64,000 bases of DNA. Source: Chrysomallon squamiferum (lineage: Eukaryota > Animalia > Mollusca). A program made the translations under genes and the position numbers. A model generated the notes under the pieces. It saw nothing but the letters and a program-made list of their open reading frames with translations. It did no database searches and was not told where the DNA came from. The stretch covers positions 4,278,001-4,342,000 of the forward strand of contig CM022676.1 in the NCBI GenBank assembly GCA_012295275.1, read 5' to 3'. This document shows positions 5,969 through 64,000 of the stretch, piece by piece (positions within the stretch are counted from its first letter, which is position 1; every line of letters begins with the position of its first letter).

Positions 5969-8900
5969 ATGAGTTGTAAGTTATTCTGTGTGTTCGTGTT
6001 ACTGTAATTTACGTACAAGATATGTATTTTATATTCCTCCTAAAAGACAGACGTCTCATAAAGTATAGTATAGCATAAACAACAGAAGACACAGTTGAGC
6101 GCATTTACTAATGACCTGCCGTTTACCTTGAATAATACATGTAATAAATTATAGACTGGTCCGATACAACTAAATACAGAACAAAGAACAAAATTATATA
6201 AAATTAAATTTATTTATAGTTTTATTTGTAGATATATTAATTAAATTTACTAGATAATAATTAGGCTCTCGTTATTGCTTGTATGAACAGTCTGGAGCAT
6301 ACCATTAAATCAGTCAGGGGTGTACAGGATACATGACCTAATAAAGAGGTTTCTCTATCAAGTGGCTTTTCTGCATAACAGTCTGTCTGTCGGTATTTTC
6401 AGCGGGAAACAGTTATTTATACCTGAGTCTATCTCATTTCAATTAGACTAAGTCTAAGTTATATTTCGTTGACTTGTGTGATTTGAATTTTTGAAACACA
6501 TCTGTATTAAAGCATGAGACAATAAGATAAGATAACATAACATTACATTAGGATATGAGAGTCCATAACATGGCGTATCGTAATAATGTAACATAATGAA
6601 ATAAAGTAAAAGTATGGAATAAAGTATACTACTACTACTACTACTACTACTACTACTACTACTACTACTACTACTACTACTACTACTACTAATAATAATA
6701 ACAATAACAATAATAATAATAATAATAATAATACATAAATAAATAAACAAATAAATAAAAATAACACAAAACTTAACAAGAATGTAATGTAAAAAATGAA
6801 TTTAAATTTATTTGAACTTTTGTTTTTTTTCTCTCTATTTTATTATTTTAAATTTTAGGTCAATATTACAGTTTAACAACATCAGACAGATATGCAATTG
6901 TTGGATCACCTTTTACTTTTACCTGCGAGACAGATTTTCATTTTCTTGAAGTAATTTGGTCTGTGAATAACACAGAATACAGGATGCATGAACGTGGAAG
7001 TAACGGTCAGTGTTATTTTCTTAGTGAACATCCAGAAGAATACACTTTTAACTGTTCAGATGAACTAACACTCTGACAATAAAATCAGTGAAACTCAGTC
7101 AACATGGAACAGTGTGGAGATGTGGTGATTTTAAACCAGGCAGCAATGAAATAAAACTTGAAGTTAGAGGTAAAAATCAGTTTTATTATTATCATCCTAC
7201 AAAATATGTAATGCTAATGATGAAAAATGAAATAAAATCAAGAAATCAGCAAAAATAATAACAAAATAAATATATATTAGTGACATTCATAATAATTATA
7301 ATATCAACAGCAACAACTGAAACACTACACTATCACCATCACTACGACGACAACATCCATAACTAACTACATGAGCAACCCACAGTTTCTACTCTCAGAA
7401 AGAATAAAACAAAAAGATGAAGACATTGATGATGGTGCTGATGATAATAATGATCAGGTTGATAATGTGCTTTTTTCAGGTGGTCCTGGAACATCACTCA
7501 AACTGAATACTTCGTCTGTTGTGACCGCTGTGGAAGAAAGTGACGTCATAGTGTCTTGTTCGGCGACGTGTTTCATCACGTGTAATTATGAATGGAAGGT
7601 CGCAGATGACGTCATAAGTAACACGAGCATTCTGTCATTGGCTGATATTAATAGATCACAGACAGGTCTCTATGTGTGTACGGCTGAAAATCCAGATACG
7701 AACCAAACTGCTAATAAAACACTTCATTTGACTGTACATTGTAAGTAAGAAACTGATTATAGTAAAAATAAACATGATAAAATTATCCAGTAACTTAGTA
7801 TTTGTTAGAGGTGTGTGCTTAAAATATCAGACAATCAATTATAAACGTTTACGTGCGAATATCAAGTCTGTAGAAATGTTTAGATAGACGGACTCCGTCA
7901 ACGTATTAGATCACGTACAGGATGTACGATACGATAATGTTTACGTACGTAACTCATCTTCAGTTTAGCTTCCACGTACAACCCAAGGCTCATTCACGTT
8001 TTTTTTTCCGCTAAGGAACAGAAAATTAACAGACAAGTTTACTATTTCTAGATGATTGTCATGAGACTAGTGTAAGCTTGTACCATACAGAAATTAAAAT
8101 TTATGCACTTTTCTTATAGTATGCCAAACAACAACAACAACAACAATAACAATAACACCAATAACAATAACAATAACAACAATAACAATAACAATAACAA
8201 TACTGATAGTAATAATAACAATAATAGCAACAACAACAACAAAAATGGCGACAGTATTAGCAGATATAGCAAAAGTAATCATGCTCACGACACCATCCAT
8301 ATCAAACAAGACGGGAAAGATTAAACAAAAATATGAAGACAATGATGATGAAGCTGCCGATAATGATGATGATGATGTTGACAACGTTTTTACTTTTATT
8401 TATTTATTTATTTTTTGTTCAGATGGTCCTGGAACATCACTCAAACTAAATACTTCGTCTTTTGTGACTGCTGTGGAAGGAAGTGACGTCACCGTGTCTT
8501 GTTCGGCGACCTGCTTCATCTCGTGCAATTATCAGTGGAAGGTTGCAGATGACGTCATAAGTACAACAAGCATTCTGTCATTGGCTGATATTAATAGATC
8601 ACAGAGAGGTCTCTATGTGTGTACGGTTGAAAATCCAGATACGAACCAAACTGCTAAAAAACACTTCATTTGACTGTACATTGTAAGTAAGAAACTAATT
8701 ATAGTGATGGTGATGATTATAATGATGACGATAAAGCTGATAAAATAGAAAATAAATATTTATTTATTTATGTATTTATTATTATTATTATTATTATTAT
8801 TATTATTATTTTTTTTTTTTTCACAGATGGTCCCGGTAGTTCACTTCGAGTCAATTCTTCATTTGACATCACTGTAGAGGAAGGAAGTGACATAACAATA

Positions 8901-61702: not shown

Positions 61703-64000
61703 ATGAATCACAAAACCCAAATAAATAATTTGTCATTAGTCGTCAGAATTTCAGCATATTAGCTTATCTTTATTTGCACAAACGTTTTTGACCCTTAATT
61801 TATTTTGAGTAGTATATAATATCTTAATCTCACGTTTTTATTTTCATTAATGAATTTTCTGGCCCTGTAGAAGACAGCAGTCTGTTTGTAAAAATATTTG
61901 GCAGCGGTTTTGGAACTTTGCTTGTTCTGTCTGTTATCATTGTCATTGTCGTTGTTCTCCATGTCCGAAACAATTGAAGTATTTCTTTATTTGTTTGTTT
62001 GATTCCTTCTTTCTTTCTCTATTTCTTTTTATTTTATTTTCTATTCTTTATTTATTTATTCATTCATTCAGTTGATCGTTCGTTTATTTATTCATACCTT
62101 CATACTAGTGTATGTTTGTTCTTTGTATGTTTATTTATTTTATTATGTATTTTAATTACACTTACGCACGGATAAAAGTGGAGATAAATCAAGACTACCT
62201 TACAAAACTACATTACACAGAGTGATCAAACCTGTTTTCTTGACTACCTGTCTAGTTCAGCCACCTGATAAATACTAATTCCATTTATTTTTCTCATACA
62301 GCTTTACTAAATAGTTATTTTATGTTAAAATTGTGTTTGTGTGTTTATATATCTATCTATTTATATATATATATATGTACATACACACACGTCAGCACGA
62401 TTATTGTTTTCTCCACACCTCACAAGTTTTATACAAATGAAAATTTCATTCCATGTTTCAGATAATCCGACTGCGCCAGCGGCTGCACCACAACATACAG
62501 ACTTGTGATAAAGTTTGAAAATAAATGAAATTGTTGTTCGTGAATGACAAAGAAGAAAACAAGTTTTATTTGTTAATCATGTACTTCTTAAAACTGTTTT
62601 ATGAATACTAACAGGATATTAATTTGTTAAAAGTTTTTTTTACTAATATACAAGGCCTTCAGTTTCCTCAATGACACAAAATTTGAATACTGTAAATAGC
62701 TACCTGTTATAAATATTTTAATCAGTTGCTAATCCCGAATTTTTAATCATTCATTACCATTGTCTGAGATGTGACTCTAACTATGTGAAAACTTCGTGGG
62801 ATTTATGACTTAAAATCAATCTATTTACACACGTATACATTAACAAAAAAGAAACATTTGATCAATCTTGGTAACACTGGTGTCATTCATACATCTTTCC
62901 GCTTTTAATTTTTTATATTTCCTCAGATGTAAGATTCTTGACGTCATGAAAGTCTTTATTTTCTTGTATAACAGTAATATGAAAAATGAAATTCCTGGGC
63001 GACAATGGCAGAATAAATCTATATTTACAGGTTGTTTTTATACTAACAAGAGTGTTCTTTCCACGGTTTCGTAAACTTTATCTGTCAAAGCTGTTCTCTT
63101 TTTTTGTGATACTTGTGAGTTTTTCATATTTTTATTCTCTATTTACTTTGAGTGAAGCATAATTCTACATGATGATTTTGTAAAATTTGGACGAGGGTTT
63201 GAGCGTGCCAATCGATTTTGTTTGATTTTTGTTGTTTGTTTGTTTTTTATATTGAAATATACGGCTTAGATTGGATTTAAAATGCTTTTGTTTTTTCAAA
63301 CAATGTTTCAGTATGTGCATGTTTCCTGTTAAGTGTCTTTCTCTATACTGTTAGATTTTTGGGGGAATTGTTGCTTATGTAAAAAAAAAACGAAATGATA
63401 GAAAATCGGTTAAAAGAACTATGGTTAAGCAGTTAGAACTGGAAAAAGGACAAGGGACATAATGAAGGGAACTGATTTAAGTACTAAACTATATCTAACC
63501 AAGCTATTCCCTTTTTGGTGATACTTGTGAGTTTTTCATATTTTTATTCTCCATTTACATTGAGTGAAGCATAATTCTATATGAGGATTTTGTAAACGTT
63601 TGACGAAGGTTCGAGCGTACCAATCGATTTTGTTTGATTTTTGTTGTTTGTTTTGTTTTTTATATTGAATTAAACGGCTTGGATTAGATTTAAAAAGCTT
63701 TTGTTTTTTCAAACAATGTTTCTGTGTGTGCATATTTCCTTTTAAAGAGGACAAGGGACGTAATGAAGTGAACTGATGTAACTACTAAACTAGTGTGTAC
63801 TATTTTTCTGCTCATTATGTTATTTTCTTTATCATATTACCAGATTTGTTTATGTGTTCGCGATAACAAAGATTTTTCGTTGACATAATAAATACATTTT
63901 CCTGTTCTCTGCTGTATTTTATTGTTTCCCTTCGTGCACAATAAGCAAACTAATGTTTTTCTTTGTCTTTCAAATGTGTTCGTCTCTTTGTGTGTCTTTG

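Follow-up and report, generated by a model that had tools for sequence, protein, structure and literature searches.

The 64,000-nucleotide stretch of the genome of the snail Chrysomallon squamiferum analysed here (GenBank assembly GCA_012295275.1, contig CM022676.1, positions 4,278,001 to 4,342,000 of the forward strand; hereafter the window) contains seven gene bodies of one receptor family of the immunoglobulin (Ig) superfamily, in which a V-set tip, a stalk of further Ig domains and a transmembrane (TM) segment are combined with exons bearing the tyrosine-based activation motif of immunoreceptors (ITAM). With moderate confidence, the cluster is read as part of a birth-and-death family of activating, microbe-binding receptors that would signal via Syk or Shark kinases. 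This reading is carried by the exon anatomy, the V-set fold of the modelled tip, an ITAM pattern conserved in the related snail Gigantopelta aegis, the apparently separate expansion of the family in the two lineages, the hypervariability of the V loops and the lesions that mark most copies. The ligand, cell type and signalling route proposed below are drawn by analogy from the oyster receptor CgIgR and from the SYK-like and shark genes of G. aegis.

Units were called by using the window's own exons as search queries and then examining reading frames and splice sites, in DNA with a guanine-cytosine (GC) content of about 30% and abundant microsatellites. The seven gene bodies (A to G), six on the plus strand and one (E) on the minus strand, draw on a shared exon kit that consists of a 58-nt leader, a V exon, the related I-type exons Ia and Ib, a membrane-proximal exon Ic, a 117-nt TM exon, two short cytoplasmic exons (cyt1 and cyt2) and a 105-nt tyrosine-motif exon. 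The inventory comprises 11 leader exons (five within units and six orphan), seven V exons (five of them open), four full copies and two fragments each of Ia and Ib, three Ic exons, seven TM exons and seven ITAM-type tail exons; no further plausible coding exon was recognised by eye among the other stop-free stretches of the window. A first-pass annotation made from the sequence alone had described the same seven gene bodies of one family in both orientations, with the same make-up of leader, V, up to three types of I/C-type exon, TM and tyrosine tail. Because every Ig exon is phase 1-1, Ig exons can be dropped or repeated. The ectodomain is V-Ia-Ia-Ib in A, V-Ia-Ib-Ic in E and V-Ia-V2-Ib-V in G, and the tails also differ, with four tandem tail exons in E and an end straight after the TM exon in C and G. 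The units and the repeat blocks among them are as follows.

5969-11364, plus strand: unit A, a pseudogene, with leader 5969-6019, V 6859-7169, Ia 7480-7740, Ia 8423-8682, Ib 8827-9087, TM 9491-9607, cyt1 10469-10496, cyt2 10932-10978 (YxN) and ITAM tail 11252-11364.
14735-17357, plus strand: unit B, a pseudogene, with leader, V 15107-15418, Ia fragment 15844-15899, TM 16427-16543, ITAM exon 16756-16860 and a short terminal exon at about 17307-17357.
21088-24180, plus strand: unit C, with intact leader, intact V 21909-22214, Ib 22847-23018 with an internal deletion, TM 23551-23667 that ends in a stop and a short terminal exon.
26037-27968, plus strand: unit D, a fragment, with an Ia remnant, intact Ib 26653-26913, damaged Ic at about 27163-27466 and TM 27852-27968.
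38228-29180, minus strand: unit E, the sole minus-strand unit.
38228-33567, minus strand: ectodomain and TM of unit E, with leader 38228-38171, V 37497-37186, Ia 36791-36531, Ib 36064-35804, Ic 35572-35294 and TM 33683-33567.
37497-37186, minus strand: V-set exon of unit E, with a C22/W33/C88 core, an added C51/C65 pair and a tryptophan at the tyrosine corner.
32856-29180, minus strand: tail of unit E, with cyt1 32856-32826, t1 32530-32440 (91 nt), t2 31949-31845, t3 30921-30817, t4 29805-29701 (internal stop) and a terminal exon at about 29227-29180.
41004-43754, plus strand: unit F, a fragment, with an Ib remnant, intact Ic 41407-41685, TM 42042-42158 (donor lost), cyt1, cyt2 (YYNA) and ITAM tail 43624-43754.
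45984-56700, plus strand: tandem upstream repeat blocks, with orphan leaders at 46485 and 52923 and many copies of a 230-bp module.
57205-62510, plus strand: unit G, a pseudogene with a shuffled ectodomain, with leader, V1 58042-58344, Ia 58698-58958, divergent V2 59219-59530, Ib 59841-60095, duplicated V3 60963-61268, TM 61862-61978 and a short terminal exon.

Pseudogenisation within the window is nearly total, which sharpens the earlier description of many pseudogenes, since, when spliced constitutively, no unit is intact as far as the ITAM. At least two lesions are present in each of A, B and G, and D and F are without leader and V. Unit A has a leader deletion with a stop and a broken donor, frameshifts in V and the second Ia, and a lost cyt2 acceptor; its ITAM pattern is undamaged. 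In unit B the leader exon is 57 nt long, which shifts the phase, and a stop falls at the F-strand cysteine of V; the TM and ITAM exons share phase, and cyt1 and cyt2 were not found in this unit. Unit C encodes an open 159-residue leader-V-TM protein without a tail if Ib is skipped, and a truncated product otherwise. No leader, V or tail exons were found in unit D, and unit G has lost its leader donor and TM acceptor and contains stops in Ib and TM. Paralogous blocks of at least 500 bp are 68-92% identical, apart from one exon-poor pair at 96.7%, and the proteins of five compared V exons (A's V excluded) are 65-90% identical; the copies are therefore not assembly duplicates, a possibility that had been raised at the outset.

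Unit E is the only unit open from the ATG through the TM segment, with 429 residues and no stop, eight N-glycosylation sequons and ectodomain and TM introns that are all GT-AG and phase 1. Its t1 exon, 91 nt long, fuses two family exons and is one base below the phase needed. The tail that includes every exon is 60 residues long with no ITAM, and the tail that skips cyt1 and t1 has one strict ITAM and one YxxV variant. The E ectodomain joins an ITAM in frame only if cyt1 and t1 are skipped, or if the one-base shortfall is an allele or an assembly error; the TM-to-ITAM-exon layout produced by such skipping is seen in unit B. The Ic-TM intron of unit E also holds a GC-richer, non-repeated insert at 33900-34600, with a 95-codon stop-free stretch at 34006-34290 on the minus strand, which is possibly a transposon fragment.

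The identity of the tip rests on structure, as Pfam is almost blind to the V exons: no V-set match was obtained for any of five V exons, the E values were 0.003 or worse, and E's V gave no match. The Ia and Ib exons matched Ig_2/Ig_3 with E values of 1e-5 to 1e-9, and Ic matched weakly (0.002). An AlphaFold model of V, built from the five-exon alignment, reached a predicted local distance difference test score (pLDDT) of 86; its top Foldseek matches were antibody and T-cell receptor (TCR) V domains, and VIA-align gave Z 13.0 against TCR V-beta (root-mean-square deviation 2.1, 97 aligned) and Z 12.9 against CD8a. On this model the first Ig exon is predicted to fold as a V-set domain, in line with the V-domain tip of the first-pass annotation. 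The Cys(B)-Trp(C)-Cys(F) pin (C22, W33 and C88) is invariant in all five aligned V exons. The salt bridge and tyrosine corner of the D-x-x-x-Y-x-C motif are missing, the exons reading HGTVWRC or EGNIWRC instead, and the exon ends in a SNEIKLEVR-like sequence with no GxG. The modelled domain is best described as an atypical molluscan V variant. The membrane-proximal exon scores as Ig_3, and no lectin domain was found among 14 exon translations scanned.

The tail exons were searched with a strict ITAM pattern, YxxL/I-x6-12-YxxL/I in the cytoplasmic tail, of which the family form is YSSL-x8-YxxI/L. The strict motif is present in four of the seven tail exons of the window (A, B, F and E-t3; shuffle P at most 0.009 each); the other three are E-t2 with YxxV, E-t4 with a stop inside the motif and E-t1, one base short. 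All four G. aegis members that have an in-frame tail carry the strict motif as well. In all nine aligned tails, Y-S-S and the second tyrosine are invariant and the spacer diverges, and a YxN motif stands upstream of the ITAM in both genera. The tails that had been called ITAM-like thus include strict ITAMs that are kept across genera. Among 70 relatives scanned, 24 have TM and tail and six have an ITAM, against 0.07 expected by shuffling; these six are four related G. aegis genes and two bivalve proteins. The TM cores are uncharged in all seven cases and contain GxxxG-type glycines.

An indexed search with the V profile returned four proteins, all from G. aegis and 51-56% identical, three of which are named 'CEACAM-like' and one uncharacterised. 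An exhaustive search gave 68 matches, and the 20 clusters looked up consisted of three unnamed clusters and 17 named ones, all from gastropods or bivalves (Gigantopelta, Haliotis, Lottia, Dreissena, Mya, Mytilus, Tegillarca and Potamilus). No relatives occurred among 597 pattern matches in a metagenome scan, and an I-domain profile search yielded 21 generic long Ig proteins, with no new family member and no paired inhibitory partner. A one-to-one orthologue of a conserved adhesion gene, the alternative named when the cluster was first noticed, did not appear in the sequence searches and is rejected. The first-pass annotation had also placed the sequence in an apparently invertebrate genome and foreseen probable automated 'CEACAM-like' labels, and both expectations are matched by the mollusc relatives and by the RefSeq names in G. 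aegis.

G. aegis is a peltospirid with a GC content of 37% according to the part of PMC7895826 consulted, and judged by these relatives alone the window would likely belong to another peltospirid vent snail, such as Chrysomallon. Its family members (XP_041379697-700, XP_041346676, XP_041346725, XP_041372832/3 and XP_041373955/6, RefSeq 'CEACAM1/5-like'), three of which lie on one 53-Mb contig, are described in the literature found by automatic name only. They share with the window units the order leader-V-I-(V-I)-Ic-TM, the YxN motif and a YSSL-x8/9-YxxL ITAM; unlike the window units, they are intact, and RefSeq lists isoforms without TM, without the first V or without the ITAM frame. In trees, the window and G. 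aegis copies fall on opposite sides of one branch (support 96/97 for the I domains); the V tree has the same split at 77/86, which is weak and accompanied by long branches. The split fits separate expansion or homogenisation in each lineage, and such lineage-specific expansion agrees with the birth-and-death evolution proposed earlier. The V type with a tryptophan corner also heads other uncharacterised mollusc proteins, namely P0026 (Mya arenaria), P0030 (Tegillarca granosa), P0025 (Lottia gigantea) and P0012 (Dreissena), some with ITAM- or ITIM-like tails (ITIM, immunoreceptor tyrosine-based inhibitory motif) and one in a cluster of 36 isoform or paralog members; these proteins may represent a wider, unnamed molluscan class of V-domain receptors.

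Traces of duplication are spread over the window. Six orphan leader exons (1421, 39188 and 40362 on the minus strand; 2756, 46485 and 52923 on the plus strand) retain an ATG and a canonical donor and have no V exon downstream, and the youngest duplication found pairs 1072-2537 with 38845-40299 (96.7% identical). A non-coding module of about 230 bp occurs in 18 places in 709-56330 with 79-97% identity, is dense at 48149-56330 and is mostly positioned upstream of leader exons. Its role could be regulatory, or it could be a small mobile element whose copies favour unequal crossing-over. An assembly gap of about 200 N lies at 2539-2737. In unit G, 57430-58669 is repeated at 60370-61598 with 90% identity, V1 (58044-58343) looks mosaic, with a C-like start and a B/E-like middle that suggest gene conversion, and V2 (59219-59530), which is fully open with good splice sites and 37% identical to the other V exons, reads as an older V lineage inside a broken gene.

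Copies beyond the window were sought in public DNA by comparing E's V exon, as a 336-base V stretch, with four of eight listed runs, among which RNA was not represented, a fact with no bearing on expression; summed contig depth was not taken as copy number, nor were letters missing from a run taken as absence. Matching contigs numbered 151, 228, 188 and 107, of which only 23, 41, 22 and 16 were at least 99% identical; up to 23 contigs share one alternative letter within the exon, and in run X1 one contig is identical to it over 135 bases. Since the runs contain far more variants than the window's six V exons of E's type, more V copies or alleles exist, the two not being separable in run data. 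Functional copies in Chrysomallon are probably mostly outside the window, with E the one candidate inside it.

Selection was tested with the authors' own codon-likelihood code, with the divergent V2 excluded throughout. Under codon models, the ratio of nonsynonymous to synonymous rates (omega) was about 1.05 for V, 0.52 for Ia, 0.67 for Ib, 0.35 for Ic, 0.78 for TM and 1.10 for the tail, and IQ-TREE codon runs gave no support for an omega differing from 1 in V. The comparison of models M1a and M2a was significant for V (p 0.0075; range 0.001-0.008) and for none of the five other exon sets, the sites singled out belong to BC, C'-C'' and FG, and the signal persisted with segment-specific trees for three segments (p 0.0056). 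Loops defined by DSSP had an omega of 2.7 versus 0.95 and 0.55; a wide-loop partition (omega 3.0) was drawn post hoc, so that the DSSP loops and a free-rate control were relied on instead. When the loops were given their own rate, loop omega was 1.1-1.4 (p 0.83 and 0.43), and the four open V exons alone gave p 0.03-0.08; positive selection on the V loops is therefore suggested and not established. The loops resembling complementarity-determining regions are hypervariable in both genera: variability in loops versus remaining columns is 0.49 versus 0.22 in the window and 0.41 versus 0.24 in G. aegis (p 0.018), and column variability correlates between the two (rho 0.31, p 0.001). Of the diversification claimed in the first-pass annotation, the variable ectodomains and tails stand.

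These results bear on whether the Chrysomallon cluster is a dying remnant of a family that works in G. aegis, multiplied here by repeat-driven recombination and drift, with loop variability arising from indels and conversion instead of selection. The lack of any fully intact unit, the six orphan leaders, the 18 upstream-module copies, V and tail omegas near 1 and the vanishing of the selection signal under a free loop rate all speak for such decay. They are countered by the I/C exons' omega of 0.35-0.67, by the 429 open codons and canonical introns of E together with the five open V exons out of seven, by the variability of the same columns in G. aegis and by the many further V variants elsewhere in the genome, and a dying remnant is considered quite improbable.

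Several known receptor families share parts of this design. The oyster CgIgR, a mollusc Ig receptor with TM and a classical ITAM, binds bacteria, dimerises, recruits Syk and promotes phagocytosis, as reported in the available part of PMC6994640. It resembles the window family in combining an Ig ectodomain, TM and ITAM; compared by description only, it differs as one gene with five Ig domains, and the same part of that source reports no variable cluster. Biomphalaria PTC1/PTC2 and FREP/VIgL are likewise clustered immune genes of a gastropod, polymorphic and either single-pass or Ig-containing (PMC10875847, in the part available). FREPs are secreted Ig-lectin proteins, unlike the window family, whose TM and lack of a lectin domain in the 14 translations reject FREP/VIgL membership; the term ITAM does not occur in that genome paper, and no Biomphalaria protein was present among 24 match clusters whose names were looked up.

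Vertebrate families were compared in the same way. The ITAM-bearing CEACAMs (CEACAM3 and dog CEACAM1-related proteins) combine a V domain and a variable number of C-type domains with ITAM tails in a tandem cluster with broken exons, and their N-domain Ka/Ks near or above 1 resembles the omega of the V exons (PMC2110893, in part). The CEACAM plan of one V and zero to six C-type domains is fitted by E (V plus three), whereas G and the G. aegis members carry a second V in the stalk. The N domain of vertebrate CEACAMs generally lacks the B-F disulfide. The V domain of the window family has the cysteine pair, and its profile matched CD8a best among PDB entries (E 0.006) and CEACAM1 only with an E value of 0.37 outside the N domain, which rejects CEACAM membership; the resemblance lies in generic I/C domains, for which FcRL5 and MAG outscore CEA. 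KIR/LILR and activating NITR proteins have either a charged TM residue that pairs with an adaptor bearing the ITAM or, following V, a J-like GxG motif. The uncharged TM of all seven units and the lack of GxG after V argue against membership in these families.

The Hydractinia Alr family has the same overall design: its genes are clustered, its V-set tip is unusual and escapes Pfam, its stalk is I-set, some of its members bear ITAMs, and it shows pseudogenes and exon shuffling (bioRxiv 2022.03.04.482883, in the part covered). Alr V domains have no cysteine pin, most members have an Fn3-like fold, the paralogs have diverged strongly and genetics links the locus to allorecognition, according to the same part; the window family has four cysteines in V, no Fn3 exon and recent paralogs, and Alr membership is rejected by the retained pin and by the Ig_3 score of the membrane-proximal exon. 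The shared design nevertheless raises self/non-self or cell-cell recognition, in which V-V binding with paralog or allele preference, as in Alr, CEACAM and nectins, would let the ITAM trigger rejection or clearance of foreign or altered cells. The concentration of variation at BC, C'-C'' and FG, the face through which V domains usually contact protein partners, is in keeping with this. The structural departures from Alr count against it, as does the fact that allelic polymorphism is not separable from paralogy in the run data; moreover, a solitary snail is not known to have a fusion-rejection system. Self/non-self recognition is considered rather unlikely, and allorecognition has no specific support in the window data.

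For the favoured family of activating, microbe-binding receptors, the following mechanism can be proposed. Unequal crossing-over among repeat blocks would duplicate, shuffle and kill units, helped by the phase 1-1 Ig exons. The variable V loops may bind a changing ligand, most plausibly microbial surfaces, and ligand binding would cluster the receptors. No DAP12-type adaptor would be needed, because the TM has GxxxG-type glycines and no charge. A Src-family kinase could then phosphorylate YSSL-x8-YxxI/L, tandem-SH2 Syk or Shark could dock on the phosphorylated ITAM to drive uptake or activation, and the YxN motif could add Grb2. Forms without a tail (C-type), without ITAM or without TM may act as decoys or modulators. 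The G. aegis annotation contains two SYK-like genes and one shark gene (PMC7895826 supplements), and among the genes listed as high in the oesophageal gland, which houses the symbionts, are shark and four 'CEACAM5-like' genes (PMC7895826, in part).

Several observations weigh against this reading. With simple constitutive splicing, none of the seven units runs unbroken from its ATG to the ITAM, the tail exons have an overall omega of 1.10, and the selection signal in V fades with a free loop rate and in the four open exons. The C-termini of A, F and the G. aegis members also match an ITIM-like pattern, so that signalling may not be exclusively activating. Of the gland-enriched 'CEACAM5-like' genes there are four rows, versus 43 'carcinoembryonic' annotation matches, none of them tied by sequence to the window family. 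The 'CEACAM5' orthogroup is broad, with 59 genes in Lottia and 103 in Bathymodiolus (PMC7895826, in part). ITAMs are also used in clearing corpses and are found in allorecognition genes, as discussed in the available part of bioRxiv 2022.03.04.482883. The same part describes ITAM-Shark signalling as a driver of damaged-cell engulfment in flies, which, with shark present in G. aegis, brings in receptors whose ligands are endogenous, for example dying cells or cues for tissue and neural wiring, and that act in the manner of Drosophila Draper. Rapid copy turnover, expansion per genus and loop hypervariability are unexpected for a fixed self ligand, and no one-to-one orthologue of a conserved adhesion gene appeared; such receptors are considered very improbable.

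The expanded 'CEACAM5' orthogroup was already listed by Lan et al. 2021 in a figure legend, with 130 genes in G. aegis and 101 in Chrysomallon besides those of Lottia and Bathymodiolus, and the parts of PMC7895826 covered contain no domain or tail analysis of it. The orthogroup is not tied by sequence to the window family. The earlier view that automated annotation would probably label the family only CEACAM-like or miss it holds in that only automatic CEACAM-like names were found, and is qualified in that an expanded 'CEACAM5' orthogroup in vent snails is on record. A clustered V-ITAM family was not found described for gastropods in the searchable literature, which covers few subscription journals and includes the available parts of the 2025 review PMC11999971 and of PMC10875847, and the mollusc Ig-ITAM receptors seen there amount to a single one, from oyster.

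A bolder proposal, regarded as unlikely, is that vent snails independently built a CEACAM3/KIR-like repertoire of dozens of V-ITAM receptors, with hypervariable loops like complementarity-determining regions, through exon shuffling, ITAM-exon multiplication and splice decoys, and use it both to select from seawater the symbionts that they acquire horizontally and to keep these in check or digest them inside the oesophageal gland. In vertebrates, clustered, fast-turning V-domain ITAM receptors are familiar, and a cnidarian was recently found to have them as well. A family of this kind in gastropods, with its atypical V-set tip, shared hypervariable loops and separate expansion in two genera, would show that the design recurs in lophotrochozoans under a misleading 'CEACAM-like' label, and would offer candidates for how vent snails recognise environmentally acquired symbionts.

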